Below are positions 9,108 through 60,233 of a DNA stretch of 64,000 bases, piece after piece; positions within the stretch are counted from its first letter, which is position 1, and every line of letters begins with the position of its first letter. Under the pieces are notes generated by a model. It was not told the origin of the DNA, ran no database searches, and saw only the letters and a list, made by a program, of their open reading frames with translations. Made by a program: the position numbers and the translations under genes. The DNA comes from an uncultured Planctomycetaceae bacterium (lineage in GTDB: Bacteria; Planctomycetota; Phycisphaerae; SM23-33): positions 4,862-68,861 of the forward strand of contig CAZVYJ010000009.1 of assembly GCA_964631565.1 (NCBI GenBank), given 5' to 3'.

Positions 9108-9129
9108 GAAAACTCACCGCAAAATAATT

Positions 9130-9170
9130 CAGCGCCAGTCGCGATAACGCGACTGGCGCTGCCTTTTGCG
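9130..9170 (+). terminator. Rho-independent terminator after the RRM gene
   Basis: cagcgccagtcgcg-ataa-cgcgactggcgctg (14-bp stem) followed by ccTTTTg. Confidence 0.75.
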
Positions 9171-9206
9171 CCAAGTGAAAACAATGGCCGCGGAATACCG
9201 CATCTG

Positions 9207-9668: not shown

Positions 9669-9988
9669 TGTTCATCTCCATTCCAGATGGCGACATCATC
9701 CTTGAGCCATAAACCTCTATCACATAATTTCATCCCCCCATACTTATAGCCCATGACGCCCAATTCTCACGAATTCGTATCCCAAAAAGGTTTATCCATC
9801 CCATAACTCCAGTCCTTGCAAAGAAATAATTTTTTTACAGAATTTCCTTTGTCGCCAAAAATGCGGAATCAATTGCGTGCGCAAATACGTCCGAAACAGA
9901 TGTTCGACAAGGTCGCGAATCTTCGCGGCTGCCGCACGCTGGAGATGTACTGGGGCGGCATCGGCGACTGGAGAGCGTAGCGGAAGCT

Positions 9989-10432: not shown

Positions 10433-10502
10433 ATAACTTCCGCCAATCGCTTTCTCCCGCTTGACGCTCCAATGGCCAGTGCCTATTATCCTGAGCATTG
10501 CC

Positions 10503-11480: not shown

Positions 11481-12568
11481 ACGACTACCGCGTTAATCTC
11501 GAAATATACAACGGCCCGCTTGACCTGCTGCTGTACCTCATCAGGCGGGACGAGGTGGATATCTACGATATTCCCATCGCCCACATAACCGAGCAGTACC
11601 TCCACTACGTCGAGATGCTGAAGGAGCTTGACCCGAACATCGTTGGCGACTTCCTTGTGCTGGCGGCCACGCTCATGGAGATAAAGACGCGCATGCTCCT
11701 GCCGGCCGCCCCCGCCGAGGAAGGCGGCGAAGGCGACGAGCTGCAGCTCGACCCGCGTGCGGAGCTGGTCCGCCAGCTTCTGGAATACAAGGCGTTCAAG
11801 GACGCCGCCGGCGATCTGCATGAAGCAGCCGAAATGCAGTCGCAGAAATTCCCCCGCCGCCCGGCCGACGTCAAGCTCGACGACGGCACGACCGACCTCG
11901 AGGATGTCCAGATATGGGACCTGTTCGACGCGTTCAGCCGGATAATGGAGGAAATCGGGCAGCGGAAAACGCATCACGAGGTCATATACGACGACACGCC
12001 GGTCGAGCTTTACGCCGAAGACCTGCTGGACAGGCTGAAACGCGAAGGGCCGATGACGTTCCGCCGCGTTTTCGAGGGACGCGGCAGCCGAAGCGAACTG
12101 GTCGGGCTTTTCCTGGCCATGCTGGAGCTTGTGAGGCAGAAAAAAATATTCGCAACACAGGATGACAACTTCAGTGAGATACATGTACACTTGAACCCGA
12201 ATCCGCCGGCCGACGATGAGGAAATCATCTCGCACGAGATGGACATGCCCTCCGGCGGCGAGCCGGCCGATATAAATGATGCAAGCAGTGAAAACGGCGA
12301 AAATGATGAAAAAACGTCGGGACAGTACGTCCCGCAGACTCCTGTAAATGACGAAGAGGAAGACAAGAATATGATGGACACGGAAACAGACTTCGCCATG
12401 GATATCGATCTGGACGACCAGGAAGAGGAAGAGAACGACGACTTCGAGTTTGACGATGACGACGAGGATGAGGAGTTCGACGACGATTTCGATGACGACT
12501 TCGACGATGACGATGAAGAATTTGAAGACGATGATGAAGAAGAGGCCGACTTCGACGAGGAAGAATAG
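11477..12568 (+). CDS. scpA: Segregation and condensation protein A (kleisin) with a ~110-aa polyacidic C-terminal extension
   Basis: LEIYNGPLDLLLYLIRRDEVDIYDIPIAHITEQYL is the ScpA N-terminal signature. Its start overlaps the trpS stop (ATGA). The tail is DDQEEEENDDFEFDDDDEDEEFDDDFDDDFDDDDEEFEDDDEEEADFDEEE. Confidence 0.85.
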   Translation: MNDYRVNLEIYNGPLDLLLYLIRRDEVDIYDIPIAHITEQYLHYVEMLKELDPNIVGDFLVLAATLMEIKTRMLLPAAPAEEGGEGDELQLDPRAELVRQLLEYKAFKDAAGDLHEAAEMQSQKFPRRPADVKLDDGTTDLEDVQIWDLFDAFSRIMEEIGQRKTHHEVIYDDTPVELYAEDLLDRLKREGPMTFRRVFEGRGSRSELVGLFLAMLELVRQKKIFATQDDNFSEIHVHLNPNPPADDEEIISHEMDMPSGGEPADINDASSENGENDEKTSGQYVPQTPVNDEEEDKNMMDTETDFAMDIDLDDQEEEENDDFEFDDDDEDEEFDDDFDDDFDDDDEEFEDDDEEEADFDEEE

Positions 12569-45486: not shown

Positions 45487-46173
45487 ATGGAACGCTACGC
45501 CATAATAGGACTGGGACGTTTCGGCTCGCGGCTGGCCACACTGCTGGTCGACGCCGGCGCCGAAGTTATCGCCATAGACAAACAACGCGAACTGGTCGAG
45601 GCCATGCGCGACCGCGTAACGCTGGCGGTATGCCTCGACAGCACCGACGAGGAAGCCCTTCTCGCGCAGGGCATCGACAAGGTCGACGTAGCAATCGTCG
45701 GCATAGGCACAGCCTTCGAAGCCAGCGCGCTGACCACAGTCATACTCAAGCAGATAGGCGTGCCCCGCGTAATCGCAAGGGCCACCACATCGGTCAGGGC
45801 GCAGATACTTTCACGCATCGGGGCAGACGACATCGTGAACCCGGAGCAGGAATCGGCCGAACGGTGGCGGAACCGCCTGATGGCGCCGTCGATAATGGAA
45901 CGGATAGAGCTGGCCGAGGGGTTCAGCCTGGTTCAGGTGGCGGCCCCGGAAAAATTCGCCGGCAAAACGCTGATGGAGCTGAACGTCCGCAACAAGTACA
46001 ACGTCAACGTGGTGGCAATCCGGAGAACCGTCGCCGAAAGCGACGAAGAAGGCATAAAGCGGACTCGACAGTTCGTTCTCAGCGTGCCGATGGCTGACAC
46101 GAAAATAGAGTCCGGCGACGTGCTGCTGATAATCGGCGACAATGAATCGATACGCAATTTCCCCGCGGCGTAA
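45487..46173 (+). CDS. trkA: TrkA/KtrA regulatory subunit (RCK: TrkA-N plus TrkA-C)
   Basis: The Rossmann motif GLGRFGSRLA is the NAD-binding site. The C-terminus is a TrkA-C-like domain. Confidence 0.85.
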   Translation: MERYAIIGLGRFGSRLATLLVDAGAEVIAIDKQRELVEAMRDRVTLAVCLDSTDEEALLAQGIDKVDVAIVGIGTAFEASALTTVILKQIGVPRVIARATTSVRAQILSRIGADDIVNPEQESAERWRNRLMAPSIMERIELAEGFSLVQVAAPEKFAGKTLMELNVRNKYNVNVVAIRRTVAESDEEGIKRTRQFVLSVPMADTKIESGDVLLIIGDNESIRNFPAA

Positions 46174-46194
46174 GTTCGCAACCATCGTAAACAG

Positions 46195-46233
46195 AATAAA
46201 AAGCCCACCTATCAGGGGTGGGCTTTTTATTTT
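46195..46233. terminator. Bidirectional Rho-independent terminator between trkA and rpiB
   Basis: AATAAAA-agcccacc-tatcagg-ggtgggct-TTTTATTTT. Confidence 0.8.
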
Positions 46234-46256
46234 CGATATATACAGGATCGCCCCGC

Positions 46257-46751
46257 TTATCTTCCGTTGTCGGTCAGACCGTTGAAATCGTCGAAGTCGG
46301 CAGGGTTTTTGTTCTGCTCGATCCATCCTATTTTGCGGACTCGGCGTTCGTGCCGCCCGCCGCCGTCGAACTCGGTCGTCAGCCAGCTCGACACGATTCT
46401 TCGCATCAGTTCTTCGCCCAGCACGTCGCTGGCAAGGCAGAGAATATTCGCGTTGTTGTGTCTGCGGGAAAGCTGGGCGGTCAGTTCGTCGTGGCAGAGG
46501 GCAGCCCGGGCGCCGCAAACCTTGTTGGCGCAGATTGTCATGCCGATGCCGCTTCCGCAGATCAGTATGGCCCTGTCAACCTTGCCGCCCGTGACAGCCA
46601 TCGCGACAGGATATGCAATGTCCGGGTAGTCGCAGCTCTTGGAGCTGTTTGTGCCCATGTCAATAACTTCGTGTCCCTGCTCATTGAGAAGGACAGTTAT
46701 CTTTTCCTTAAAACTGTGTCCTCGATGGTCCGCGCCGACAGCGATTCTCAT
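46257..46751 (-). CDS. rpiB: Ribose-5-phosphate isomerase B
   Basis: MRIAVGADHRG...ILICGSGIGMTICANK matches the RpiB/LacAB family. Confidence 0.9.
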   Translation of the reverse strand: MRIAVGADHRGHSFKEKITVLLNEQGHEVIDMGTNSSKSCDYPDIAYPVAMAVTGGKVDRAILICGSGIGMTICANKVCGARAALCHDELTAQLSRRHNNANILCLASDVLGEELMRRIVSSWLTTEFDGGGRHERRVRKIGWIEQNKNPADFDDFNGLTDNGR

Positions 46752-46769
46752 TTTTCGATCCCGTTTAAC

Positions 46770-47873
46770 CTATTTAAGAACAGACTTAAGAGCCTGCTGT
46801 ATTTTAAGAGCGGTTTTTTCATAAACTTCCGCTCCTCCGCCGATGGGGTCCGGAATGTCGCCGCTTGATGCCAGTGTTCTGACTTTTCCGACTGCTGAAG
46901 GCAACATTTGACGAACCGCTTCGACATGGAAATCCGTCATGCAGAATACCACATCTGCATCATTTATCAATTCTGTTGTCAATTTTCGGCTGCGGTGGCG
47001 GGAAATATCCGCACCAAGCGATTTCGCCGCTAAAATCGCTTCGGGCGTGGCTTTATTGCCGTCTGCGGCGAAAATTCCGGCAGAAATAATGTCAATACCG
47101 TAATTCCGCAGATCGCCGGCGCTGCACCCGAACTTTTCCGCAAAATATTTTTTCGCCAGGCCGGCCGCCATGGGGCTTCGACAAGTATTGCCCGTGCATA
47201 CGAATACGATTTTCCGCCTCAGCAGCCTCCTGATTGTACGCTCGCAGTAAACGCCCGAGCGGACAAGCTTCCAGCCGCCCTCTTCGAAGCTGACAATCGT
47301 ACTGTCCTTGCCGAATTCCGTCGCCCCGGTGTCTATGAGCAGGTCGATCCGGCCGTTGAGGTATCTGATGACATCATCGGCGTTGCGAGGGGATTTTTTT
47401 CCGGCCGGGTTCGCGCTGGGCGCCACGACCGGCCCGCCGGCGGCAGCCAGCATTCTCTCGCACAGCAGGCCGCGCGGGCATCGCAGCCCTATCGTGTCAT
47501 CCGAGCAGAGCACGTCGTACAAACCGGCCTGCTGAAGCTTCCGGTCGGCCAGCTTTCCGCCGGTCGGCAGAATGATGGTGACCGGACCCGGCCAGGTCTT
47601 GGCCATAAGCCGGGCGGCATCTTCAGGAATCTCCCGAACGAACATCGACACGTCCCGCGCCGAGGCGATATGAACGCTGAAAGGCCCCTTCGGGCGGGAT
47701 TTCACCCGGCGAAGGCGTTCGATGGCCCCTTCGTGCGAGGCAAGAGCGGCTATGCCGTAAACCGTCTCGGTGGCGAATCCCACAAGCTTGCCGGCCCGCA
47801 AGGCTTCTGCGCCGGCCGCGGCGGCCGCGACGACTTCAGACTCCGTTCCGGGTTTTATGACCTTCGTTTCCAT
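46770..47873 (-). CDS. tsaC: Fusion protein: L-threonylcarbamoyladenylate synthase domain (TsaC/YrdC/Sua5) plus low-molecular-weight protein-tyrosine phosphatase (LMW-PTP)
   Basis: N-terminal GKLVGFATETVYGIAA...KSRPKGPFSVH is the YrdC signature. The C-terminal VFVCTGNTCRSPMAAG is the CX5R P-loop of LMW-PTP / ArsC-like phosphatases. The track start at 47954 is a GTG. I prefer ATG 47873 (METKVIKPG). Confidence 0.8.
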   Translation of the reverse strand: METKVIKPGTESEVVAAAAAGAEALRAGKLVGFATETVYGIAALASHEGAIERLRRVKSRPKGPFSVHIASARDVSMFVREIPEDAARLMAKTWPGPVTIILPTGGKLADRKLQQAGLYDVLCSDDTIGLRCPRGLLCERMLAAAGGPVVAPSANPAGKKSPRNADDVIRYLNGRIDLLIDTGATEFGKDSTIVSFEEGGWKLVRSGVYCERTIRRLLRRKIVFVCTGNTCRSPMAAGLAKKYFAEKFGCSAGDLRNYGIDIISAGIFAADGNKATPEAILAAKSLGADISRHRSRKLTTELINDADVVFCMTDFHVEAVRQMLPSAVGKVRTLASSGDIPDPIGGGAEVYEKTALKIQQALKSVLK

Positions 47874-47947
47874 ACCGTTCTGCAAGAGCAATTTATTATC
47901 CCAACTGAACCGAGGCAGTTCAAGGTGAACCGGCGGCAAGGCCGTGC

Positions 47948-50014
47948 TTACCACTTTGTCAGCAGGTTTGCAGCCTCGGCCGACAGCGGAGATTCCGGGT
48001 AATCCACGGTTATTTTTTTGAGCATTTCGGTGCTCTTTTCCTTTCGGCCGAGCTTTCGATACGACCTGGCGGCAATCATCAGCAGTTCCGCGGCATAATC
48101 GGACCGCGGATTGACCCGTACAAGCGTCTCGGCCTCGATTACGGCGGCGATGTTGCGGCCGCGGGCGAAAAGCTGCCTGGCCTTCAGCAGCGACCAGTAG
48201 CCTTCGAGCTTGTCAGTCGGTATCGCCGCCGCCCAGCTGGCGAGATACTCGTCGGCGGAGGCGTATTCCCGGCGGCGGGTGAAATCCTCGATGCTGCGGG
48301 CGAAATTGCCGCGATGGAACTCCGCCCCGCCGGCTGCGGTGTCGAACTGCATGCCGGCCTGCTCGTAGGAGTTCTTCGCCTTGTCATAGTCGCCCTCGGC
48401 CCGCCGGACGTCGCCGATGCCGATAAGTCCGAGGCGAATCACATGCTTGTCGACCCGCCCCGGATAATTCTCCACGACGTCGCTGAAAATGCTCCCGGCA
48501 CGTTTCGTGTCGCCCAGTTCATCGACAGCAATCTGTCCGGCATAAAGAAGCGCCTTGGCGGAAATATACGGCGCCTTGGCGAGGGCGGCGAGTTTCAGCA
48601 TCGCCTCGACGGCCTGCTCGGGCCTGCCGGAATTGACAAGCGAGGGAGCATAAATCAGTCCGACGCGCCTTATATCGACATCGTCCGCGCTGCTGCGGAG
48701 AACAAACGCATTGCCGGCCTTCAGCAGTTCTTCGTTCATCGCCGCGCAGTCGAACAGAACCACCGCGTTGGCATTGGCCTCGGGAGAAAGTTTCGCGAAA
48801 TCGTATTTCGCCGCGATGCCTGCGTGCATGGCGTTGCTGTCGATATCCCGGTTTATGACGCAGTCCCACGGACGGGCGACGACAATAACATTTGTGCACG
48901 TCAGTTCCCCGACACGGGTTTTTGCAGAGAGTTTCACGGTGTACCGCCCATCGGCGAGATAAACATGCTCGACCTTTTCGCCGGGAGCGGTCTGCCCGTC
49001 GCCAAAGTCCCACTGCCACTGCAGCTCGCCGGCAGTCTTGCCGACAATGTCGGCGGCGAACGTGAAACGCTGGGTGTAGCGGTCGCCGATGAATGTTTCG
49101 CCCGCATGGGTCGGCGTGAAATCCACCGACAGCGTTTTGCCGTACTGCTCCGCCGGCCCGAAGCTCGCCTGAATCACCGGCGCGAAGCTGTTGGCGGCAA
49201 TCGGCCAGATGCGGTCGTCCCCCGGGGACTTCCACGCCGCGACCGCTATTGGATCGCCGTTATTGGTCACGTGCATGTATGTAAGCTTGTGCAGGCCGGA
49301 CTTGAGCTGAACTTTGTTCTGCTTCACCGGAGTATTCTGCGGCCAGTGCGCCCCGCCGTTGTCCACCACCAGCTTGTCGTCTATCAGCAGAAACGACGCG
49401 TTCATGCTCGACGAGCAGAACACATAATCTCCGTCGGCCGGCGCAAAAAACCACGCCGTGTAAAGCGCAGCCAGCGAGGCTTCCGGCCCGAAGGGGTTAT
49501 GGCCGAGGAATATGTTTTCGCGGAAGTCCCGCCCGAACAGCTGTTTTTCGGCGGCGAAAATCTTTTCCGCATCTTCGAGCTTTCCCGGAGGCTGACCCTG
49601 GAACTTCCACATCTCAAGCAGCACGCCGCGTTTTATTTCCAGAGGCCTGGCCGGTCTGGCATTCGGGTTGCCGTAATAGACATGATATTTCCGCACGCCG
49701 TCGCGAACGGCGAACGCAACTTTCGCCGTGTCGCCCGGGCCGGTCATGAGAACCCGCGACGGCATGACATCGCCGTTGGCGGCTACCACGCATATATCGC
49801 TGCCGTCCGGTTTTATATGGCCGCCGGTCGGCATGGTGAAGACGGCTACGTCATCGCCGCCGAAATTGGTCGGCTTTGTTTCAGGAATTGTCACTTCCCT
49901 GCGGAACGGCCACTCGTATTTCCACCATCCCGCAGCCGACGCGTCGGACGCCAGGCAAAACAATGCCGCAGCCGTTACAATCATATGAATTGTTTTTCCC
50001 GACGCAGTAGTCAT
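47948..50014 (-). CDS. Secreted PA14-domain, PKD-domain and TPR-repeat protein
   Basis: ATG 50014 (MTTASGKTIHMIVTAAALFCLASDASAA, a signal peptide) with GGAG upstream. The PA14-like segment is YTAWFFAPADGDYVF. The PKD motif is WQWDFGDGQTAPGEKVEHVY. The C-terminus has TPR repeats. Confidence 0.65.
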   Translation of the reverse strand: MTTASGKTIHMIVTAAALFCLASDASAAGWWKYEWPFRREVTIPETKPTNFGGDDVAVFTMPTGGHIKPDGSDICVVAANGDVMPSRVLMTGPGDTAKVAFAVRDGVRKYHVYYGNPNARPARPLEIKRGVLLEMWKFQGQPPGKLEDAEKIFAAEKQLFGRDFRENIFLGHNPFGPEASLAALYTAWFFAPADGDYVFCSSSMNASFLLIDDKLVVDNGGAHWPQNTPVKQNKVQLKSGLHKLTYMHVTNNGDPIAVAAWKSPGDDRIWPIAANSFAPVIQASFGPAEQYGKTLSVDFTPTHAGETFIGDRYTQRFTFAADIVGKTAGELQWQWDFGDGQTAPGEKVEHVYLADGRYTVKLSAKTRVGELTCTNVIVVARPWDCVINRDIDSNAMHAGIAAKYDFAKLSPEANANAVVLFDCAAMNEELLKAGNAFVLRSSADDVDIRRVGLIYAPSLVNSGRPEQAVEAMLKLAALAKAPYISAKALLYAGQIAVDELGDTKRAGSIFSDVVENYPGRVDKHVIRLGLIGIGDVRRAEGDYDKAKNSYEQAGMQFDTAAGGAEFHRGNFARSIEDFTRRREYASADEYLASWAAAIPTDKLEGYWSLLKARQLFARGRNIAAVIEAETLVRVNPRSDYAAELLMIAARSYRKLGRKEKSTEMLKKITVDYPESPLSAEAANLLTKW

Positions 50015-50101
50015 GACAAACTCCGATTCTATATTGGCATAACGCGGCTTGTCGCGGTTAAATTGCCGCATAACGGAACTGCAAATGAAGCCCAATGTCC
50101 C

Positions 50102-50680
50102 ATGAAACGGTTTGACGGCATAATTTTCGACATGGACGGCACGCTGATCGAGTCGCTGCTGGACTTCGCGGCAATCCGCCGGCACCTTGGGATATCCGAC
50201 GACACCGGCATAATCGAGGGTATCGACGCCATGCCGCCCGACAAGCGCACCGCCGCGGCCGACTGGCTGCTCGAGCAGGAAATGACAGCCGTTCAGAACG
50301 CAACGCTGCTGCCCGGCGTGCATGATTTGCTGGCCGCCTGCAGGAAGGCCGGCCTGAAAACCGCCCTGCTCACGCGCAACGCGCGGCAGGTTATGGAAAC
50401 GGTCATCGAAAAATTCCGCCTGACATTCGACCTCGCATGGTCGCGGGAAAAAGGCCCGATAAAGCCCGAGCCCGACGGCGTGCTGAGGGCGTGCAGGGAC
50501 ATGGGAATTAAACCGCAGCGAACCGTCTGTGTGGGCGACTTCAAATACGATATAATCGCCGCCAACGCTGCCGGCGCGACGAGCATACTGCTGGCGAGGC
50601 GTGACCGGCCCGATTTCGCCGACGACGCCGACTACGTGGTGGCCGACCTGGCGGAACTGTACGAAATACTGGGAATCTGA
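50102..50680 (+). CDS. HAD-superfamily hydrolase
   Basis: Motif I FDMDGTL. Motif III is KPEPD; the sequence there reads EKGPIKPEPD. Motif IV is GDFKYD; the sequence there reads VCVGDFKYDI. The rest of the long track ORF 48314..50680 is antisense to the PA14 gene and spurious. Confidence 0.8.
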   Translation: MKRFDGIIFDMDGTLIESLLDFAAIRRHLGISDDTGIIEGIDAMPPDKRTAAADWLLEQEMTAVQNATLLPGVHDLLAACRKAGLKTALLTRNARQVMETVIEKFRLTFDLAWSREKGPIKPEPDGVLRACRDMGIKPQRTVCVGDFKYDIIAANAAGATSILLARRDRPDFADDADYVVADLAELYEILGI

Positions 50681-51892
50681 ATGGCTTATCTACCCCTGGC
50701 AAACATTCTGCATCACAAGCTGAGAAGCACGCTCAGCGCGGTGGGCATCGGCATCGGCATCTGCATGCTGGTGACGCTGTCCGGCCTGGCGCGAGGCAGC
50801 CTGAACGAAGTCGCCGACCGATGGGAAGCCGTGGACGCCGACCTGATTCTGTTTCCCGGCGGACTGGGCGAAAACCTCATCACGCTCAGCGGCATCGGCC
50901 TGCCGGACAGGGTCGCAGAAGACGCGATAAAAAAACACGGCGATATCGTGCAGCGGGTTACGCCGGTTTTTCTGTGGAACGTGAAGCTCGCCGGGCAGAA
51001 CCATCTGGCAGCCGGCGTCGACCCGGAGCAGTGGCACACGCTGACCGGCGGCAGAAAGTTGCAAGAAGGCAGGCTCTTCGACCCGGAAAACGGATTCTCG
51101 AAATGGATCGAGTCGAAGCTGCTGGCCGCCGGCCATTCGGACGAAGTCATGGATATCACCAGGGCTGATCTTTCCGACCCGGCACATAACGGCCTGGAGC
51201 TGGTTATCGACAGCCGCCTCGCAGCAGCGGGCAATCTGAAAGTCGGAGACACGGTGAATACGGCAAATCACAAATGGCGGATTGTCGGCATCGTCCCGGA
51301 CGGCGGCATGGCGCGGGTTTTCATGCCGCGGCGGACTGCGCAGTTCCTGTTCGGCAGCGGCGACATAACCAAGAGCACGGTGATGTTCGTCAAGCTGCAC
51401 AAGGGCGCCGACGCCGATGCAGCCGCCAGGACGCTCTCCAACCAGCGGCAGGAGGCGATACAGCTGCGACAGTACCGCGACATGCTGCAGGAAAAATTCA
51501 GCATGATGTTCCGCTACGTCGACGCCGTGAACGCCGTCGCGCTTATCATCGCGTTCCTGTTCATCATGATCACGCTTTACACCATAGTCCTGCAGCAGAC
51601 ACGTGAGATAGCGATACTCAAATCGTTCGGCGCGTCGAACAGCCTGATACTTCGCCAGGTGATGGCCGAGTCGGCCATTCTCACCGCAGCAGGATCGGTG
51701 CTGGGCATCGCGATGAGCTTCGCCGCGGCGTGGATAATCCAGACATTCCGGCCGCTGCTCACAGTGAGCATAACGCCCCAGTGGCTGGCAATCGCCGTAG
51801 TGGCCGCCGCTGCCGGCGCAGCCCTGAGCGCAATCTACCCCGCATACCGGGCGACGCGGGTCGACATGGTTTCGGCCCTGACACTGGAGTAA
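50681..51892 (+). CDS. FtsX/MacB-type ABC permease, LolC/E-like
   Basis: N-terminal transmembrane helix, a large periplasmic domain, then a C-terminal three-helix FtsX bundle (ILKSFGASNSLILRQVM...). Confidence 0.8.
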   Translation: MAYLPLANILHHKLRSTLSAVGIGIGICMLVTLSGLARGSLNEVADRWEAVDADLILFPGGLGENLITLSGIGLPDRVAEDAIKKHGDIVQRVTPVFLWNVKLAGQNHLAAGVDPEQWHTLTGGRKLQEGRLFDPENGFSKWIESKLLAAGHSDEVMDITRADLSDPAHNGLELVIDSRLAAAGNLKVGDTVNTANHKWRIVGIVPDGGMARVFMPRRTAQFLFGSGDITKSTVMFVKLHKGADADAAARTLSNQRQEAIQLRQYRDMLQEKFSMMFRYVDAVNAVALIIAFLFIMITLYTIVLQQTREIAILKSFGASNSLILRQVMAESAILTAAGSVLGIAMSFAAAWIIQTFRPLLTVSITPQWLAIAVVAAAAGAALSAIYPAYRATRVDMVSALTLE

Positions 51893-51899
51893 CCGGCAC

Positions 51900-52595
51900 G
51901 TGAACGATACTGATACTGAAAACATTCTGGAAGCTGCGGGCCTGCACAAGTCATTCGGCAAGGGCCGGGCCGCCGTTCACGTGCTTCGCGGGCTTGATCT
52001 GGCTGTCCGGCGCGGCGAATTCCTGGCCGTCATGGGCCCGAGCGGCTGCGGAAAAAGCACGCTGCTGCACGTTCTTGGGCTTATGACGCCGCCGGACAGC
52101 GGAACGATAAGCATCAACGGAAAGCCCGTGGGCAACAGCAGCGCCGCAAGGACGCTGCTGCGGCGAAAAGATATCGGCTTCGTATTTCAGCGTTTCAACT
52201 TGCTCGGCACGCTGACGGCGGCGGATAATGTCGCCGTCTCCCTGCGGGTGCGGGGCATCAGGGGCGACGGCCGCTGCGACGAACTGTTCGGAAAGATGGG
52301 CATCGCCCACGTCGCCGGACGCAAGCCGGGGCAGATGTCCATCGGCGAGCAGCAGCGGGTTGCGGTCGTCAGGGCCATCGCGCACAGGCCCGCCCTGCTG
52401 CTTGCGGACGAACCGACGGGAAACCTGGACTCGGACAACAGCGTCTCGCTGCTGAAACTGTTCAGGCAGATGAACCGCGACGAGGGGCAGACGATTGTAA
52501 TGATTACGCACTCCGCCGAGGCGGCTGCGGCCGCCGACCGCGTCGTGCACATGAAAGACGGGTTGATTCTTGATGAGCGATCATCACATTCTTGA
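51900..52595 (+). CDS. ABC transporter ATP-binding protein, LolD/MacB-type
   Basis: Walker A GPSGCGKST, ABC signature MSIGEQQR, Walker B LLLADEP. Confidence 0.9.
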   Translation: MNDTDTENILEAAGLHKSFGKGRAAVHVLRGLDLAVRRGEFLAVMGPSGCGKSTLLHVLGLMTPPDSGTISINGKPVGNSSAARTLLRRKDIGFVFQRFNLLGTLTAADNVAVSLRVRGIRGDGRCDELFGKMGIAHVAGRKPGQMSIGEQQRVAVVRAIAHRPALLLADEPTGNLDSDNSVSLLKLFRQMNRDEGQTIVMITHSAEAAAAADRVVHMKDGLILDERSSHS

Positions 52596-53355
52596 GCCGC
52601 ACCTGCCCGACGATATAACGGTCAGGCACTGGCTGGCGGCGTACATCGTGATGCTTGCGGCAGCCGCCGTGCCGATGGTCATGCTCATCGCAGCCGACGG
52701 GCTTGGCTGGGAAAACTGGAGGCATGCCCCGCAGAAAACGTTTACCGAGGCAAGTGCGATTATCAAGCTGCTGGGCTTCGCCATCTACATGTCGTTTTGC
52801 TGCACCGTCCTGCCCATGCCCACGAGCTGGATAGTCGCCGCAGTAGCCACGCGCGACGCCGCAGTGGGCGACGGCGTGTGGGACACTGTCGCACTGGTCG
52901 CTGTCGTCGGGGCATTCGCATCCACCGTGGCGAACCTCAACGATTACCACCTGTTCACGTGGATACTCCGCCACAAGAAAATTGCGAAGGTCCGCAACAC
53001 GAAAACCTACCAGAAGGCGGCGGCGTGGTTTTCGAGATCGCCGTTCCTGCTGCTGGTGGTTTTCAACCTCATTCCGATACCTATCGACATCGTCCGGATG
53101 CTCGCCATCACCTACCGCTACCCGCGAGTGCCGTTCGCGGCGGCGAACTTTATCGGCAGATTGATCCGGTATGCGATACTCGCGTTCGTTATATACTGGT
53201 GGAACCTCGGATGGTACGCGGTGGTCGCCCTGCTGGCCCTTGCGGTGGTGCTTGGCGGCGGCAGAGGCGTAATAGCGATGTACAGGCGACTTACCCGGCG
53301 GACAAACGCCGCGGCGGTGAACGTGTCGGAATCAATAGAAACACAGGAGCAGTAA
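52570..53355 (+). CDS. Polytopic inner-membrane protein, possibly DedA/VTT-like
   Basis: About 5-6 transmembrane helices. Its start overlaps the upstream ATPase gene. The family assignment is weak. Confidence 0.45.
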   Translation: MMSDHHILEPHLPDDITVRHWLAAYIVMLAAAAVPMVMLIAADGLGWENWRHAPQKTFTEASAIIKLLGFAIYMSFCCTVLPMPTSWIVAAVATRDAAVGDGVWDTVALVAVVGAFASTVANLNDYHLFTWILRHKKIAKVRNTKTYQKAAAWFSRSPFLLLVVFNLIPIPIDIVRMLAITYRYPRVPFAAANFIGRLIRYAILAFVIYWWNLGWYAVVALLALAVVLGGGRGVIAMYRRLTRRTNAAAVNVSESIETQEQ

Positions 53356-53357
53356 GC

Positions 53358-54242
53358 ATGAAATTTTTCGTTATAACACTCGCGATATTCGCACTGCCGC
53401 TGGCATGCGTGTCAGCCGGCGACAAAACGGAAACAACTTCAACCACCCAGCCGGCAACAGACGCCGATAACGCAGCAAAAACCGATGAAAACACGGAAAA
53501 TCCGACCACCGCGCCGGAAGCGGAAATAACTCCCGAGGCCAAGGAAATTCTCGACAGGCTCGAGAAGGCCGGCGACAAGTACAAAACCCTCAAGGCTGAC
53601 ATCGATTACACCGTCGTCATGACGCAGCTGGGCGATACCGACAAGCGGACCGGCTGGGTCGCCTTCCAGCAGAAAACCAAGGACTCCCCGGCGAAATTCC
53701 GCGTCCAGTTCGCAACCAGGCAGCTCGGCGAAGGCGCCGCCTTCCGCGAAAAGGAAGATTACGCGTTCAACGGCTACTGGCTGACCGTCGCGAAGCATAA
53801 AATCCGCGAGATAACGAAATACGAGATTTGCAAAAAAGGCGACGAAGTGGACGTTCTGACAATCGGCAAGGGGCCGTTCCCGATACCGTTCGGGCAGAAG
53901 GCCGCCGACGTGATGAAATACTGCGAAGTCACCACGCGCCCGCTGGAAAAAGGCGAGCCGGAAAAAACCAGCTACCTGAAGCTCGCCCCACGCAAGGAAT
54001 GCAAAGAGGATTTGAACTTCACACAGCTCGAAATGTGGGTGAACGACAAATACCTGCCCGTCCGCATCGTCAGCCGCGACAAGAACAAGGACATCACAAC
54101 CGTCGTCTTCAGCAAAATCGAAACTGACGTCACGCTCGACAAGGACGTCTTCAATATTCCCGTCCCGGCCGGCTGGCAGTCACACGAGCAGCCGCTCGAT
54201 AATAAGCAGTCCGACGGCTCGACCAAACCTGACAAGGAATAA
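53358..54242 (+). CDS. LolA-like periplasmic protein (lipoprotein-carrier / outer-membrane lipoprotein-sorting fold)
   Basis: ATG 53358 with AGGAG upstream. Signal peptide. The length and an alternating hydrophobic beta-strand pattern of the LolA/LppX type run through WVAFQQKTKDSPAKFRVQFA...YWLTVAKHK. The call is by eye. Confidence 0.5.
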   Translation: MKFFVITLAIFALPLACVSAGDKTETTSTTQPATDADNAAKTDENTENPTTAPEAEITPEAKEILDRLEKAGDKYKTLKADIDYTVVMTQLGDTDKRTGWVAFQQKTKDSPAKFRVQFATRQLGEGAAFREKEDYAFNGYWLTVAKHKIREITKYEICKKGDEVDVLTIGKGPFPIPFGQKAADVMKYCEVTTRPLEKGEPEKTSYLKLAPRKECKEDLNFTQLEMWVNDKYLPVRIVSRDKNKDITTVVFSKIETDVTLDKDVFNIPVPAGWQSHEQPLDNKQSDGSTKPDKE

Positions 54243-54248
54243 CCGACA

Positions 54249-57122
54249 ATGACTCTCCCCCGCCTCGCAAGCGTTACAGCGGTCGTGATGTTTCTTTCAA
54301 TCATCGGCCCGGCCGACTTCGCGTTCGCCCAGCAGGCCGAAGACACCCGGCCGCTTGCCGAGCAGCCTTACATCGGGCTGCGGTTCGAGGATCATCAGCC
54401 CACCGGCGCATGCCTTGTAACGTGGGTTCTGCCCGGCCCGCTGTTCGGCGAGAAAGACCCGGCCCCGCTGGTTAACAGCGGCGACCTGATACTTAAGGTG
54501 GACGGCAAGAACCTCAAGGCCGACGAACTCCAGAAATACGTCGCGGCCAAAAAGCCCGGCGACGAGATGACGCTCACCGTCCGCTTCACGAAGATGCCGC
54601 CGAACACATACCCGTTCGCGCCGGGCGAAGGCACGGAAACGAAGGACCTGAAAATCAGGCTGGCCGCCCGCGCCGACTGGGCAGGACCGATTTCATTCCC
54701 ACGCCAAAAATATCTTCCACTCAAACCGGAAACATTGCTGGACCCAGCCAAAACGTTCAGCTTCGAAGCTCTCGTCATGCAAAAAGCCGGAGAGAACAAT
54801 CTCACCGACGCTTACAACAAGCTCTGCGGCGTGCTGAAGGAAGCCCAGAGCACGACCGTCGGCTACAACAACCTGGCCCGCGTCGCATATCCGTTTTACT
54901 ACCCGCTGCGGATGAGCGAGCTTCAGGAAGAGATAACCGCCCCGCTCGCCGATTACGCGAAGGATCCGTCCGGCATATGCAGCTACGCCGCAAAGATGCT
55001 CGACCTCAGTGCATACAAAACCAAGAATACGGAAAAGGCCAACATGTCCATTCCTCGCGATGCGCTGAAGTTTTCGGCAAAACAGGTCGCCGCGGCCAAC
55101 GAATACCTTCGCAAGGCATTCGAAAAAATTCCCGCCGACCACCGGGCCACGCTGGCCGAGGACATCGACACGCTTGTCGCCGGGCTGCCCGCCACGGTCT
55201 ACGTGGCCGGCCACAAAAACCCCGCCCGCATGATAAAAACTCTCCAGGCGAGCATGTCGATTGATTTCAGCTCTTTAATACTGGCCGCCGGTGAAATGTC
55301 GGAGCTTATACAACGCGGCACACCGCCGGCGAAGGACACCAAAACTGTCGAAATTCCGCAGGAAATGCAGAACGCCGTCACCGGCGACGTGCTGGACATC
55401 GTGCAGATTGACGGCCGATGGTACGTCTACGGCGGCTTCGGGGCGAATACATACGACATGTCGAAGATAACCGGTGTAATCGACGCAGGCGGCGACGACA
55501 CGTACAACTATCCGCAACAGGCGCCGTGGACTGTCCGCTTCATCATCGACATGGCCGGCAACGACCGTCACATCGGCTCAGCCGGTGGACCCGCTGCGGC
55601 GCTGTGTGGAATAAGCCTGCTGGTCGATTACGCCGGCGATGATTTCTACGCCGGCCAGAAACCATGCTGCGGTGCGGGCATCATGGGCGTCGGCATGCTG
55701 ATAGATTACGACGGCAACGACGAATATCAATCGCTGTACTGGTCGCAGGGCGCCGGGTTCTACGGGTTCGGCCTCATCGCCGACCTCGGCTACGGGCGCG
55801 ACCTGTACCAGTCGCAGATTATGAGCCAGGGCATCGGCGGGCCGCGCGGGCTCGGGCTGATTCTCGAACAGGGAGGCGAAGATTACTACCGCGTCAACGG
55901 ACCGGTGAAATCGTCCTACGGAACGCCCGGCGTCTACAACGCATGCAGCCAGGGCTTCGGGTTCGGCTGCCGGACTTACGAATCCGGCGGCATCGGCATC
56001 ATCGAAGACCTTGAGGGCAACGACCGCTACGACGCCGGCGAGATGGCGCAGGGCGGCGGATATTACTACGGGCTTGGCATTCTCCATGACCGCAAGGGCA
56101 ACGACAGCTACACCGGCGTCCGCTGGGCGCAGGGCTTCGGCTGCCATCAGGCGCACGGCATACTCGCCGACGACGAGGGCGATGACACGTACTACGCGCT
56201 GCAGGTCGCCATTCAGGGGTCTGCGTGGGACATCGCAGTCGGGGCACTTATCGACCGGGCCGGCAACGATTCATACCAGTGCGGCGCCGGCCTGTCGCAG
56301 GGTGGAGCTTCCATGCAGGGTGTTGCATATCTCATGGACCTCGCCGGGCGCGACAGATACATCGCACCGCCCTACGCCTCGCAGGGCAAGAGCGGCGGCA
56401 ACAGCTACCACTACGCACGGACCGGCGCGATGAGCTTTTCGGTCCTGTTCGACTCCGGCGGCGATGACGACCTTTACTCCACCGGCCGGCCCAACAACAA
56501 AACTATTTCCGTCGGCGAGCCGGATGAAAAGAACCCGGCCGAAAGTCCGCTGTACGGCCTGTTCATAGACACAGCGGGCGACGACCTGGCCGTCATGACA
56601 TTCAAGGATAGATTCCCCCGCTCGGTCAAGTGCGACAGTTCCGGACACATCACCAGCCTCGGCCTGCGCAAAGAAACTCTCACCACAGAGGCTCTCACTG
56701 AAGCCGACTTTGATATCATAGCCTCTCTGACACACCTTGAACTGCTCGCACTGAGTGAATCGAACGTCTCCGACGAGACCGTTGCGAAGCTCATGAATCT
56801 CAGGAGCCTGAAGCGGTTGTACCTGGGCGACACCGCCGTTTCTGACACCGGGTTGCGCGAACTCGCCGCCCTGTCCGAAATGGAATGGCTGGAACTTGAC
56901 AATACGAAGATTACCGGCAAAACCCTCCCGGCAATAACAAAAATGAGTAAAATTCAGCATGTGGGAATCAGCACGACGGCTGTTACCGAAGCCGATATCA
57001 GAGACCTCGCATGGCCGCTTTCGCTCAGGACTCTGGTCGTGTCACAAAATATGATTTCCAAGGCTACAATCGAGAAACTAAAGAAAGACAACCCCAATCT
57101 GGAAGTCATAATTTCAGATTGA
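54249..57122 (+). CDS. Secreted 957-aa protein: PDZ-like N-terminus, about twelve ~27-residue GND-x-Y/QG-x-G repeats (putative beta-solenoid), and C-terminal leucine-rich repeats
   Basis: Signal peptide. A PDZ-like segment (GDLILKVDGKNLKADELQKYVAAKKPGDEMTLTV). Repeats such as GNDRHIGSAGGPAAALCGISLLVDYA / GDDFYAGQKPCCGAGIMGVGMLIDYD / GNDEYQSLYWSQGAGFYGFGLIADLGY. LRRs of the form LxxLxLxxTxVSD (LELLALSESNVSDETVAKLMNLRSLKRLYLGDTAVSDTGLRELAALSEMEWLELDNTKITG). Confidence 0.6.
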   Translation: MTLPRLASVTAVVMFLSIIGPADFAFAQQAEDTRPLAEQPYIGLRFEDHQPTGACLVTWVLPGPLFGEKDPAPLVNSGDLILKVDGKNLKADELQKYVAAKKPGDEMTLTVRFTKMPPNTYPFAPGEGTETKDLKIRLAARADWAGPISFPRQKYLPLKPETLLDPAKTFSFEALVMQKAGENNLTDAYNKLCGVLKEAQSTTVGYNNLARVAYPFYYPLRMSELQEEITAPLADYAKDPSGICSYAAKMLDLSAYKTKNTEKANMSIPRDALKFSAKQVAAANEYLRKAFEKIPADHRATLAEDIDTLVAGLPATVYVAGHKNPARMIKTLQASMSIDFSSLILAAGEMSELIQRGTPPAKDTKTVEIPQEMQNAVTGDVLDIVQIDGRWYVYGGFGANTYDMSKITGVIDAGGDDTYNYPQQAPWTVRFIIDMAGNDRHIGSAGGPAAALCGISLLVDYAGDDFYAGQKPCCGAGIMGVGMLIDYDGNDEYQSLYWSQGAGFYGFGLIADLGYGRDLYQSQIMSQGIGGPRGLGLILEQGGEDYYRVNGPVKSSYGTPGVYNACSQGFGFGCRTYESGGIGIIEDLEGNDRYDAGEMAQGGGYYYGLGILHDRKGNDSYTGVRWAQGFGCHQAHGILADDEGDDTYYALQVAIQGSAWDIAVGALIDRAGNDSYQCGAGLSQGGASMQGVAYLMDLAGRDRYIAPPYASQGKSGGNSYHYARTGAMSFSVLFDSGGDDDLYSTGRPNNKTISVGEPDEKNPAESPLYGLFIDTAGDDLAVMTFKDRFPRSVKCDSSGHITSLGLRKETLTTEALTEADFDIIASLTHLELLALSESNVSDETVAKLMNLRSLKRLYLGDTAVSDTGLRELAALSEMEWLELDNTKITGKTLPAITKMSKIQHVGISTTAVTEADIRDLAWPLSLRTLVVSQNMISKATIEKLKKDNPNLEVIISD

Positions 57123-57476
57123 CTTCAGGCTAATGCCGGGCTGCCCGCAAAAAAATAACTACCGTCAGCTGGAACCAAGCACTTTTTTTGCAGCCGTCTT
57201 TGCGGACAAAAATCGTCTTTAAGACAAAAATATCCACCCGTTAATCCCCAAAAACGGAAATCTCCTGTTATGCGCAGCTCAAATTGCCCTTTAGGAATCC
57301 GTTAAGGCGACGATAAGCCTTACGGAGAGAAATATATTCACCGAGTCATTACAGGAGCATGCTGACGTACGAGTGGGTCGCACGCAGTAGTTGTTTGATA
57401 ACTTTCAGCTAATTAAGCAGTAACAGCAGACAGGCCCGCCACGGCGAATCCCCTGCCTGCGGCGGTTTTTCAGCCT

Positions 57477-58277
57477 TTGGCTATTATGGAATTACCGGTT
57501 ACACAGCATGGCAGTTTCAACACTAACCGTGAAGAAGCGGTTGTTTTGCCGTTTCCGGGTGTTTTTGATGTTCTGAATGAGGTACTCGGCGGGAGCGCCC
57601 CAAGCGATTTCGCCATGGAGATATCCCGCGCGGAAGATAACGAGCGGCAGAGAATCGCAGAAGATCTGCACGATTGCCTTGGGCAGAATATCGCGGCGCT
57701 CAGCCTGAATCTCCAGCTTCTCAACGGCAATAATCTGCCGCCCGATCAGGCCAATATCCTGACCCGGTCGCTTGCTCTTGTCAGGCAGCTCAGCCAGGAC
57801 ATAAGAACGTTTACGTTTGAGCTTTGTCCGCCGACACTGTACGAGCAGGGTATCTCAGCCGCCCTCGCACACCTGGTGGAGAATTTCCGGAAAAGATACT
57901 CGCCGCACATACAGTATCACGACGACAGCCGGCCCAAGAACATGCCGCCCGGAAAAGCGGCTTTCCTGTATCGCTCGGTTCGCGAACTGCTCATTAACGC
58001 AGTCAAACATGGCAAAGCGGACAATATCACCATCATTACCCGCACCGTCGGGCATCATGTCGAAGCAGAAGTGGAAGATGACGGCATGGGTTTCGACAGT
58101 TCGTTTGAACTCAGCCGATCCGAGAAAACCGGCTTCGGACTTTTCAGCATATCCCGCCGCCTGAAAAACTTTGGCGGGCGTCTGGATATCGACTCCGCTC
58201 CGAAGCGGGGAACAAAAATCAAAATACGACTCCCAATCGCCGCAAAAGCAGGCCGCGGAGAATTTTCAAAGTTATGA
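57477..58277 (+). CDS. Cytoplasmic histidine kinase, HisKA_3 / NarX-LiaS type, with no sensor domain
   Basis: ERQRIAEDLHDCLGQNIAAL is a HisKA_3 H-box. HATPase motifs NAVKHGKA, DDGMGF and GFGLFSI. No transmembrane segment. Confidence 0.8.
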   Translation: MAIMELPVTQHGSFNTNREEAVVLPFPGVFDVLNEVLGGSAPSDFAMEISRAEDNERQRIAEDLHDCLGQNIAALSLNLQLLNGNNLPPDQANILTRSLALVRQLSQDIRTFTFELCPPTLYEQGISAALAHLVENFRKRYSPHIQYHDDSRPKNMPPGKAAFLYRSVRELLINAVKHGKADNITIITRTVGHHVEAEVEDDGMGFDSSFELSRSEKTGFGLFSISRRLKNFGGRLDIDSAPKRGTKIKIRLPIAAKAGRGEFSKL

Positions 58278-58924
58278 CCACCAGAATACTGCTTGCAGAC
58301 GACCACACGATGGTAAGAGAAGGCATAAGCGCCTTGCTGAACAATCAACCCGGCATGACTGTCGTCGGGGAGGCGTCAAACGGCCGCGATGCGCTGCAAA
58401 TGGCCCAATCCCTCCTGCCCGATGTGGTCATCATGGACGTGTCCATGCCGGACATGAACGGAGTCAGCGCCACCGAAAAGCTCTCCGAAGTGTGCCCCGC
58501 CGCCCGCGTTCTGGCGCTGTCAATGCATACCGACCGGGATAACGTCACGCGGATGCTTCGGGCCGGCGCATCGGGATACGTGGTCAAGACCTGCGACGTT
58601 AACGAAATTCTTCGCGCCATAACCACTGTCCGCGCCGGCAGAACATACCTCAGTCCCGAAATAACCGGAACCGTGGTGGAAGATTACGTCTCGTCAAAAA
58701 ACACATCAAAGCCGGACCTGGACGATCTGACATCCAGAGAACGTGAAATCCTCCAGATGATAGCGGAAGGCAAAAGTTCCAAGCAGATAGGAACGATACT
58801 GCATATCAGTCCGAGAACCGCCGACTCGCATCGTCAGCGTATTATGGACAAACTCAACCTCTATTCGCTGGCGGAGTTGACCAAATATGCGATTCGGGCA
58901 GGACTTACATCCCTCAACACCTGA
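58274..58924 (+). CDS. NarL/FixJ-family response regulator (receiver plus LuxR-type HTH)
   Basis: Receiver motifs LLADDH, D in DVVIMD, and LSMHT. The LuxR HTH reads LTSREREILQMIAEGKSSKQIGTILHISPRTADSHRQRIMDKL. The gene overlaps the kinase stop. Confidence 0.9.
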   Translation: MTTRILLADDHTMVREGISALLNNQPGMTVVGEASNGRDALQMAQSLLPDVVIMDVSMPDMNGVSATEKLSEVCPAARVLALSMHTDRDNVTRMLRAGASGYVVKTCDVNEILRAITTVRAGRTYLSPEITGTVVEDYVSSKNTSKPDLDDLTSREREILQMIAEGKSSKQIGTILHISPRTADSHRQRIMDKLNLYSLAELTKYAIRAGLTSLNT

Positions 58925-59057
58925 CGGCAAACTCTGAATAAGCCTAAAGATAGTCATTCTCGCATCATTAATTGCGAATTCCGGCAATTACGCCTTTCCT
59001 TATATCTACCGATATCAGAAATACCTGCGGTCCGCAGTGCCAGAAAAGGACAATGCA

Positions 59058-60233
59058 ATGAGTGACTACAACGGGGAAACATCTCAAACCACAGGGCTGC
59101 TGAGGCATCTCCTCAGCATAGGAGCGAAACTGCACGGGTCCAGAACGCGGCAGGAAATGCTGGAAACCATCCTCTCGCAAGCCAGGAAATTCACGGGCGC
59201 CGAAGCTGGCAGCCTTTATCTCGTACAGAGAAATCAACTCCGATTCGTGGCCGTCCAGAACGAAACCATGGACACCTCGAACATTGTCCGCCACCTGTTC
59301 GGCCAGACCATAGCGATCTCGCCGGAGTCGCTGGCGGGGTTTGCAGCCCTGACCGGCCGAATCATAAATATCCCGGACAGCTATAATCTTCCTGAAGGCA
59401 CTCCATTCAGAATCAATCGCGAACTGGACGCCAAAACAGGTTATTCCGCCAGGAGCATACTCGCCATCCCGCTGAAATGCCCTGACGGCGTGTGCGTAGG
59501 CGTCATGCAGCTGTTCAATCGCCGCGATGCGAACGGCGGCAATCAGCCTTTCGAAGAAATAACCGATGCGTTCATCGAGGGCCTGGTTTCAACCGCAGCA
59601 ATCGCAGTGCATAATCTCAGCCTGCAGGAACAGCTCCGCAGCGTTCATCTGAACACGATATTCCGCCTGTCGACAATAGCCGAATATCGCGATGCGGACA
59701 CAGGCAACCATATTCAGCGTGTCAGCCGGATTTCGGAACTCGTCGCACGAGAACTCTCGATGCCGCCGGACCAGGTTGAACTCATAAAGTACGCCAGCCC
59801 GATGCACGATGTCGGCAAGGTAGCCGTTCCCGACGCCATACTGTTCAAACCCGGCCACCTTACCACCGAGCAGCGGAAGATCATGGAAAAACATACGATC
59901 ATAGGCGGCGAAATCTTCGAAGGCGCCGATGATGACGTACTGGTAATGGCGCAGGATGTCGCCCTGCATCATCATGAAAGATGGGACGGCAAAGGGTATC
60001 CCGACGGGCTTGCGGGAGATCAGATAGCCCTGCCAAGCCGTATTGTCGGTCTCGCCGACGTTTTCGACGCCGTTGTCTCCAGACGATGCTACAAACAGGC
60101 ATTTTCGCTTGATGTGGCGCTGGATATTCTGGATCAGGACAGCGGCAAACACTTCGATCCGGCCGTGGTCAAGGCATTCATGCAGGTGCTCGAAAGCGTG
60201 CTGGAATCCTATCCCGAACTGCGAGCCGCCTGA
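59058..60233 (+). CDS. GAF-domain HD-GYP phosphodiesterase (c-di-GMP)
   Basis: N-terminal GAF (AGSLYLV...RFVAVQN). HD motif SPMHDVGKVAVPD. HD-GYP signature HHERWDGKGYPDGL. Confidence 0.85.
   Translation: MSDYNGETSQTTGLLRHLLSIGAKLHGSRTRQEMLETILSQARKFTGAEAGSLYLVQRNQLRFVAVQNETMDTSNIVRHLFGQTIAISPESLAGFAALTGRIINIPDSYNLPEGTPFRINRELDAKTGYSARSILAIPLKCPDGVCVGVMQLFNRRDANGGNQPFEEITDAFIEGLVSTAAIAVHNLSLQEQLRSVHLNTIFRLSTIAEYRDADTGNHIQRVSRISELVARELSMPPDQVELIKYASPMHDVGKVAVPDAILFKPGHLTTEQRKIMEKHTIIGGEIFEGADDDVLVMAQDVALHHHERWDGKGYPDGLAGDQIALPSRIVGLADVFDAVVSRRCYKQAFSLDVALDILDQDSGKHFDPAVVKAFMQVLESVLESYPELRAA

Follow-up and report, generated by a model that had tools for sequence, protein, structure and literature searches.

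Among the closest described relatives of the gene unit reported here are the LolDF-LolA and LolCDE-LolA systems (E. coli, Acinetobacter, Francisella, Helicobacter), in which a type VII ATP-binding cassette (ABC) permease with four transmembrane helices and a large periplasmic domain works with a separately encoded ATPase and a LolA-fold acceptor, without a membrane-fusion protein. Canonical LolA is soluble. Mycobacterial LprG and LppX are lipid-anchored carriers with a LolA-like fold that move lipids outward and whose genes share an operon with that of an inner-membrane transporter; the LprG partner, Rv1410 (P55), belongs to the major facilitator superfamily and is not an ABC transporter, and no DedA protein is known to be involved. 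Some type VII ABC transporters export glycolipids, as does the cyanobacterial DevBCA system, and others form MacAB-TolC pumps, in which the ATPase is fused to the permease. In Borrelia, the plasmid-borne cluster BBJ23-BBJ29 encodes a MacB-like ABC transporter and a LolA-like protein, together with an Omp85-family protein and nearby TPR proteins but no DedA or HAD protein, and was proposed to be an export system from predicted structures only (PMC13078400). DedA proteins are lipid flippases or scramblases; those outside COG0586 are functionally unknown, and COG1238 members have been speculated to move lipids towards the outer membrane (PMC10127716). Here we describe a unit of five genes on a stretch of 64,000 nucleotides (nt) from an uncultured planctomycete, referred to below as the window, whose protein homologues point to Phycisphaerae, Planctomycetota. 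The genes code for a HAD-IA family phosphatase, a type VII ABC permease, an ABC ATPase, a DedA/VTT-family membrane protein and a LolA-fold protein. The unit is conserved across the class Phycisphaerae, and we consider it reasonably probable that it serves the cell envelope of this class as a Lol-like 'extract and hand off' module.

Related loci were retrieved with an alignment of the LolA-like protein via one conserved peptide pattern, which yielded 80 loci from 80 different species-level assemblies, all of them metagenome-assembled genomes of the Phycisphaerae. Relatives of the window proteins were then placed in each locus by tblastn. Upstream gene content was counted in the 54 species loci that extend at least 5 kb 5' of the LolA-like gene. 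The order permease-ATPase-VTT-LolA-like was kept in 41 of these loci, 27 of them with the HAD gene and 14 without it. Two loci had only the ATPase and VTT genes upstream, two had the HAD and VTT genes, one had VTT alone, one had HAD alone, and seven had none of the four. The same five genes were also present in all three loci (L094-L096) that were found independently through the VTT protein. Such recurrence, in 41 of 54 species loci and in these three further ones, shows that the gene arrangement is not due to chance. The preliminary description of this DNA had proposed the linkage of the permease, ATPase, membrane-protein and LolA-like genes as a test, and that linkage is kept in most related genomes. 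The VTT gene adjoined the LolA-like gene in 46 of the 54 loci and is at least as faithful a partner of it as the ABC genes are. The unit persisted in loci whose LolA-like proteins were only 27-35% identical to that of the window, and start/stop overlaps at the ATPase/VTT and VTT/LolA-like junctions recurred in other loci. Three of the loci with a lone LolA-like gene (L010, L033 and L074) have upstream open reading frames (ORFs) of cluster-like size, which we considered as hidden partners and rejected: their Pfam matches were to an aminotransferase, argininosuccinate synthase, a PP-loop ATPase, a peptidase and a zinc-ribbon protein, and the other ORFs had no match. The Borrelia cluster resembles the unit in pairing a MacB-like ABC transporter with a LolA-like protein. 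Unlike that cluster, the unit described here lies on the chromosome, and every relative of it that was retrieved came from a Phycisphaerae/Planctomycetota assembly.

In the window, the genes are tightly packed on the forward strand (Table 1). The preliminary description had reported five co-directional, closely spaced genes at 50681-57122, and the ORF list and junction sequences confirm this arrangement. The packed unit begins one gene earlier than had been noted, at the HAD gene, whose stop codon directly abuts the permease ATG. The permease and ATPase genes are separated by 7 nt. The ATPase and VTT genes overlap by 23-26 nt depending on the VTT start, for which a TTG at 52570 would give 261 residues and the ATG at 52573 gives the 260 residues of the database copy (P0195) and the 23-nt overlap. 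The LolA-like gene follows after 2 nt, with AGGAG lying 8 nt 5' of its ATG, and is separated by 6 nt from the gene for a 957-residue secreted protein. A sequence scan found promoter-like sites on both strands at 50008-50055. No forward-strand terminator-like site was found at any gene junction, and one weak match lay inside the 957-residue protein gene, in a scan whose counts were near shuffle expectation. A forward-strand ORF of 788 codons at 48314-50680 was considered as a gene and rejected: nearly all of it is a shadow of the minus-strand PA14/PKD/TPR gene, and the genuine part is confined to the final 192 codons, which form the HAD gene.

Table 1. Genes of the conserved unit and its immediate neighbours in the window.
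Gene product	Position	Strand	Length and features
HAD-IA family phosphatase	50102..50680	+	192 aa; cytoplasmic; leads conserved unit
Type VII (MacB/LolC-class) ABC permease	50681..51892	+	403 aa; MacB_PCD, FtsX
ABC ATPase, MacB/LolD/FtsE group	51900..52595	+	231 aa; GTG start; ABC_tran
DedA/VTT-family polytopic membrane protein	52573..53355	+	260 aa; PF09335
LolA-fold protein	53358..54242	+	294 aa; fold from predicted structure
Secreted 957-aa PDZ/repeat/LRR protein	54249..57122	+	co-directional; outside conserved unit
PA14/PKD/TPR protein	47948..50030	-	domains from Pfam; divergent; frequent neighbour, only possibly associated

The product of the last gene of the unit is predicted to have the LolA fold, an unclosed antiparallel beta-barrel with lid helices. 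An AlphaFold model built from a 36-sequence alignment had a predicted local distance difference test (pLDDT) score of 81.9 overall and about 95 in the core (residues 58-280), which forms a LolA-like half-barrel, and the N-terminal 57 residues were disordered. In a Foldseek search against PDB, the top 26 matches were all LolA proteins (probability 1.0, E 1e-12 to 1e-8, TM 0.74-0.82), the best of them being P. aeruginosa 2w7q (E 9.9e-13), E. coli 1ua8 (TMt 0.80) and 6f3z_B (TMt 0.82). LolA3, RseB/MucB and ependymin-related proteins ranked lower, as did mycobacterial LprG, which offers an analogy but a far lower fold rank than true LolA (2.2e-6 compared to 1e-12). The preliminary description had left the LolA-like nature of this product to structure prediction, which supports it. 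It had also placed the protein in the periplasm, and of that claim the fold stands while the free, unanchored state probably does not. On manual inspection, the signal peptide of the window protein ends in LPLAC-VSAG, and about 20 of the 36 homologues, including the window's, have an [AGS]-Cys pair at this point. Because of these features, the LolA-like protein is probably a lipoprotein rather than a free periplasmic protein. A disordered linker of about 40 residues, rich in Thr, Pro and Glu, lies between the signal peptide and the LolA-like domain. The motif GPFPxPFGQ (residues 172-180) is invariant in the family and lies in a loop between the barrel halves, where the confidence of the model is lower; this loop might serve as a plug or docking site. 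In L037, the gene that directly follows the permease-ATPase-VTT genes (8324-10687, forward strand) encodes a predicted lipoprotein of 787 residues (MKHRIPIIALSLLMTSC...) that consists of a WD40 beta-propeller (Pfam WD40 5.8e-76), a middle domain and a C-terminal LolA-like domain. L040, L044 and L050 have L037-like spacing, with about 2.3-2.8 kb between VTT and LolA-like matches. The joining of propeller and LolA-like domain suggests an anchored module as the working form of the carrier.

The permease and the separate ATPase encoded downstream of it have, by domain content and predicted structure, the type VII ABC architecture of the MacB/Lol class. The permease matched Pfam MacB_PCD (PF12704; 5.6e-18, 66.4 bits against a cut-off of 27) and FtsX (PF02687; 7.4e-17, 61.9 against 25.5), and its AlphaFold model (pLDDT 80.7) has four transmembrane helices, a long stalk and a periplasmic domain of about 230 residues. 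Foldseek matched the model to MacB (5gko, 1.6e-18), LolE (9rld_E, 1.8e-16) and S. pneumoniae Spr0695 (5xu1_M, TMq 0.59), and further to LolC, HrtB, YtrF, YbbP and BceB. When the predicted periplasmic domain was compared with LolC/LolE and with MacB, as the preliminary description had suggested, the two groups matched nearly equally (MacB 3ftj, TMt 0.63; A. baumannii LolE/F 5udf, TMt 0.61-0.63). Ranked by sequence against PDB, the permease matched MacB at 5.7e-13, LolC at 6.6e-7 and LolF at 2e-3. Permease identity was 32-65% by tblastn in the 80 species loci and 50-65% in the closer ones. The model contains a low-confidence insert at residues 150-172, a sequence position similar to that of the LolC hook, which spans residues 167-179 and, with the pad, recruits LolA; this likeness is a lead only, and the periplasmic-domain identity of the permease, 13-19%, is too low for a trustworthy residue-level alignment. 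The ATPase matched Pfam ABC_tran (1.1e-31) and is 38.8% identical to E. coli LolD and 38.6% identical to the MacB nucleotide-binding domain. An FtsEX transporter was considered and rejected: FtsX models scored 23-24 bits against cut-offs of 225-255, and the gene order is permease then ATPase, not ftsE-ftsX. The observed order is the typical lolF-lolD order (PMC11784454).

MacAB-TolC provides the best sequence and fold match of the permease and shares its MacB_PCD domain, and some homologues carry the Joint Genome Institute (JGI) name 'ABC-type antimicrobial peptide transport system permease'. The ABC pair could thus be a MacB-like efflux or antimicrobial-peptide resistance pump, with the VTT, LolA-like and HAD genes as unrelated passengers kept by inherited gene order, of which some is expected when all loci come from one class. 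We consider this improbable. In MacAB-TolC the ATPase is part of the permease polypeptide, whereas here it is unfused, and a LolA-fold protein stands in place of an adjacent MacA-type adaptor or TolC gene. No membrane-fusion (MacA/HlyD) or TolC gene was found in the window at 45487-60233 or among the called genes of L001-L008 and L094-L096, and we reject a MacAB-TolC-type pump because there is no adjacent adaptor gene. The unit survives at low LolA-like identity while its downstream flank turns over, the coding overlaps between its genes suggest translational coupling, and a LolA-fold partner is what the sole non-efflux branch of this ABC class uses. The single FtsX/MacB-type permease and single ATPase with no membrane-fusion gene fit a homodimeric transporter of the type VII Lol/MacB class, in agreement with the homodimeric LolCDE or MacB-like pump of the preliminary description.

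The polytopic membrane protein was known from the preliminary description to overlap the ATPase gene, as it does, but its family had gone unrecognised. It matched Pfam VTT_dom (PF09335) at 1.8e-10 and 41.7 bits, above the cut-off of 33.9, and has five to six hydrophobic segments. Almost all of its 312 homologues had a precomputed PF09335 match, and many carried the JGI name 'membrane protein YqaA with SNARE-associated domain', which is the COG1238 name. A profile of the family gave marginal scores with the E. coli DedA proteins (YqaA 10.3 bits, YdjX 9.5, YdjZ 0.0, YqjA -2.1), and hhalign of the family against YqaA gave an E value of 0.018. Compared to known DedA-family transporters, the protein is longer at its N terminus by about 100 residues, which contain one more hydrophobic segment. 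Read by eye, the candidate first re-entrant motif, LPMPTSW, has no acidic residue, and the candidate second motif has an invariant Asp (D172) where undecaprenyl phosphate (UndP) flippases have Arg. Because of these two differences, the protein does not look like the COG0586 UndP-flippase type.

The HAD gene at the head of the unit encodes a protein with Pfam matches to HAD_2 (1.1e-19) and Hydrolase (2.9e-19), an intact DxDGT catalytic motif (FDMDGTL, residues 8-14) and no hydrophobic segment in its sequence. Among NCBIfam models, only the generic TIGR01509 (HAD-SF-IA-v3) passed its cut-off (55.2 against 29.4 bits), and the specific equivalogs were all below theirs (Gph 67 against 225 bits, HxpB 65 against 191, PGMB-YqaB 50 against 153). 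The window protein is 24% identical to E. coli YqaB (E 3e-9). E. coli K-12 (L089:11513-12504) has a 4-nt overlap between yqaA, which codes for a DedA protein, and yqaB, which codes for a HAD-IA phosphatase, and in the Phycisphaerae the HAD and DedA genes are directly adjacent in L003, L060 and L061. Coincidence could account for the HAD and DedA pairing shared with yqaB-yqaA, or the two may have functioned together for long; as a lead, the pairing hints that the partnership could be old. The HAD gene lay directly beside the VTT or LolA-like gene in three loci beyond the 27 with the full upstream set. In L071, L072, L076 and L081, where the LolA-like match is 30-35% identical, the HAD gene is directly 5' of it, at 0.7-1.0 kb, with no VTT or ABC gene between, an association of HAD with the carrier that does not depend on the transporter.

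These observations can be joined in a working scheme, in which the unit probably brings cargo that bears a lipid anchor to the outer membrane. Two copies of the MacB/LolF-class permease, paired as a homodimer, and two ATPases would use ATP-driven movements of the periplasmic domains to pull cargo bearing acyl chains out of the cytoplasmic membrane's outer leaflet. The cargo would pass into the hydrophobic half-barrel of the LolA-fold protein which, usually lipid-anchored on its disordered tether, would carry or relay it towards the outer membrane. The DedA protein, whose gene is presumably coupled in translation to that of the ATPase and is a near-constant companion of the LolA-like gene, would handle the lipids, by flipping the lipid of the cargo or by restoring the phospholipid balance of the inner membrane. 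The folds, domain families, gene packing and class-wide conservation of the unit are the observed basis of this scheme; how the cargo is physically handed over, which way it travels, what DedA and HAD do and what the cargo is are inferred. In the Lol systems, too, a permease of this architecture is followed by a separate ATPase gene, the nearest solved structures of the acceptor are LolA proteins, and no membrane-fusion protein is used. In contrast to them, the Phycisphaerae carrier gene lies in the same operon as the transporter genes; this operon is headed by a HAD gene and has a DedA gene after that of the ATPase and before that of the carrier.

The structural neighbours of the carrier favour a lipoprotein as cargo, in which case the unit would be a strongly diverged LolF-LolD-LolA pathway; we hold this tentatively, and only slightly ahead of a free lipid. 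The coupling to DedA, the lipid-anchored carrier and the permease sequence, which is not Lol-like, favour a free lipid, which we regard as possible but less probable than not. In its fullest form, a free-lipid scheme would be a dedicated lipid exporter, in which the DedA protein flips a specific lipid to the inner membrane's outer leaflet, the ABC transporter extracts it, the tethered LolA-fold protein ferries it to the outer membrane and the HAD enzyme dephosphorylates a precursor; such an exporter is possible but doubtful. It would amount to a bacterial counterpart of the eukaryotic partnership of a scramblase with a lipid-transfer protein. The adjacency of DedA and LolA-like genes in most loci is consistent with a dedicated lipid exporter, and it persists in loci without ABC genes (L003, L007/L034, L060, L061). 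The ATPase scored 173 bits on the model for DevA, a component of a glycolipid exporter, and the carrier is of the same fold class as the mycobacterial lipid carriers LprG and LppX. The predicted lipid anchor of the carrier and the unlikeness of the permease to LolC/E point the same way, and DedA proteins are known only as lipid transporters (PMC10127716). On the other hand, no acyltransferase or glycosyltransferase gene was conserved in the unit in the inspected loci, soluble sugar phosphates are the usual substrates of HAD-IA enzymes, the carrier matches lipoprotein chaperones best in structure, with LprG and RseB ranking lower, and the DedA subfamily scores are marginal. We also entertain, as no better than a possible extension of a Lol-like pathway, that DedA is an integral, conserved subunit or partner in it, flipping a lipid that the ABC transporter extracts and the tethered carrier delivers to the outer membrane. 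In the literature that we searched, we found no description of a DedA gene within a Lol-like or type VII ABC operon or of a link between DedA and a LolA-fold protein, and nothing in the searched literature on Lol in Phycisphaerae or Planctomycetes describes the arrangement of DedA, LolA-fold protein and type VII ABC transporter.

Several results weigh against interpreting the unit as a Lol-like module. A profile of the permease family scored 52 bits with E. coli MacB, compared to 31 with LolC and 22 with LolE, and the permease fell far below the curated Lol models (TIGR02212 lolCE, 35.4 against 362 bits; LolC NF008076, 32.7 against 473). The ATPase failed the LolD model (TIGR02211, 180 against 308 bits), and it was below all NCBIfam equivalog cut-offs, with scores of 205 bits for DarD and 183 bits for FtsE and the score given above for DevA. 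By curated models, the permease and ATPase are thus not members of LolC/E/F or LolD, and the permease is slightly nearer to MacB in sequence. The carrier was likewise below the LolA cut-offs (PF03548, 19.4 against 23.6 bits; TIGR00547, 28.7 against 112). Its family profile did not detect E. coli LolA (-1.8 bits), to which the carrier has no detectable sequence similarity, and a precomputed PF03548 match was present in only 8 of 74 homologues. In contrast to soluble canonical LolA, about 20 of the 36 family members have the [AGS]-Cys pair, which the others lack, and in one clade the LolA-like domain is fused to a WD40 lipoprotein. The lone LolA-like gene in seven loci, and the few loci with only HAD or VTT beside it, also count against this reading. 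Finally, we know of no Lol pathway in which DedA or HAD proteins have a role.

The preliminary description had coupled the unit to the secreted 957-residue protein, as the cargo or partner of an export or sorting machine or as an envelope adhesin. The LolA-like gene and the gene for this protein stand only 6 nt apart, with no forward-strand terminator-like site between them, and the protein carries a signal peptide that ends in AFAQQ. The same adjacency occurs in the closest relative, L006, whose LolA-like protein is 68% identical and whose homologue of the 957-residue protein, of 778 residues, is 79% identical over 775 residues. This is the only linked homologue that was found; in the 64 species loci with at least 3 kb 3' of the LolA-like gene there was none near the cluster. 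An 800-residue protein encoded downstream of the LolA-like gene in L008 was considered as a homologue and rejected, having no similarity. The downstream gene instead differed between lineages, with rhodanese, PolA, GH130, the unrelated 800-residue protein, ADH, glycosyltransferase and STAS genes in different loci. The family is also large, with 1489 cluster representatives at E<1e-30, and the signal peptide has no lipobox, so that the protein is not an obvious Lol-type substrate. Since no homologue was found in the 64 loci and the only linked copy is in L006, the 957-residue protein is a recent, lineage-specific neighbour and not a conserved cargo or component of the unit. The cargo reading is largely refuted by synteny, and we give it hardly any weight. 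As a separate observation, GH130 genes lie 3' of the LolA-like gene in L007 (two copies, 9097-11012) and L010 (at least one, 11054-12010), both of which are without the ABC genes.

Within the 957-residue protein, Pfam matches to PDZ_2 (1.2e-4) and to leucine-rich repeats (LRR) were all below cut-off. Residues 408-785 hold thirteen repeats, each about 27 residues long and of the form xxDxxG(N/D)DxY, and the C-terminal LRR region (residues 792-938) matches the LRRs of the plant receptor FLS2 and of internalins. The L006 homologue lacks this tail. The best family matches are mostly 720-840 residues long, and they end near query residue 780, with the single exception of a match to the LRR tail itself. 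Because the tail is absent from L006 and from the best family representatives, it (window 56570-57122, residues ~775-957) was probably acquired recently in this lineage, as an added domain or by gene fusion.

Divergently upstream of the unit lies the gene for the PA14/PKD/TPR protein, of which a homologue is found in the same position in 26 of 49 loci. Its Pfam matches include PKD_4 (5.4e-13), TPR and PA14, and its C-terminal TPR region resembles the Tol-Pal protein CpoB/YbgF (TIGR02795, 1.2e-12, below cut-off). The homologues have 673-700 residues, and most tblastn matches start at query residues ~80-133. The true start is probably near 50030 and not at the ORF ATG at 50323, and the first ~100 codons of the ORF, which overlap the HAD gene, are probably untranslated. 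On the other side, after a gap of 355 nt, the forward-strand region 57477-60233 encodes a short HisKA_3 histidine kinase (266 residues) in which no sensor domain is obvious, a response regulator of LuxR type, the start of which overlaps the kinase gene, and a GAF-HD (HD_5) protein. These genes were not linked to the cluster in other genomes.

Little is known of how the outer membrane of Planctomycetota is built and supplied. Surveys in the literature that cover Lol systems and outer-membrane tethering use curated LolA and LolCDE models, and since the LolA-like family described here mostly fails such models, these surveys could miss a similar pathway. DedA proteins outside the undecaprenyl phosphate flippase group have no established function, and a class-wide operon in which a DedA gene is flanked by those of an ABC extractor and a LolA-fold carrier provides a concrete, testable hypothesis for one of them. 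If the cargo is a lipoprotein, the unit would represent the strongly diverged Lol pathway of a PVC lineage, and if it is a lipid, a new kind of envelope lipid transport. If DedA is indeed a partner in the pathway, the unit would be a previously unrecognised anterograde lipid route in a diderm bacterium and would provide the first genomic-context clue to the function of the DedA proteins that do not act on UndP. It would then also mirror the pairing of the VMP1/TMEM41B scramblases with lipid-transfer proteins in eukaryotes.

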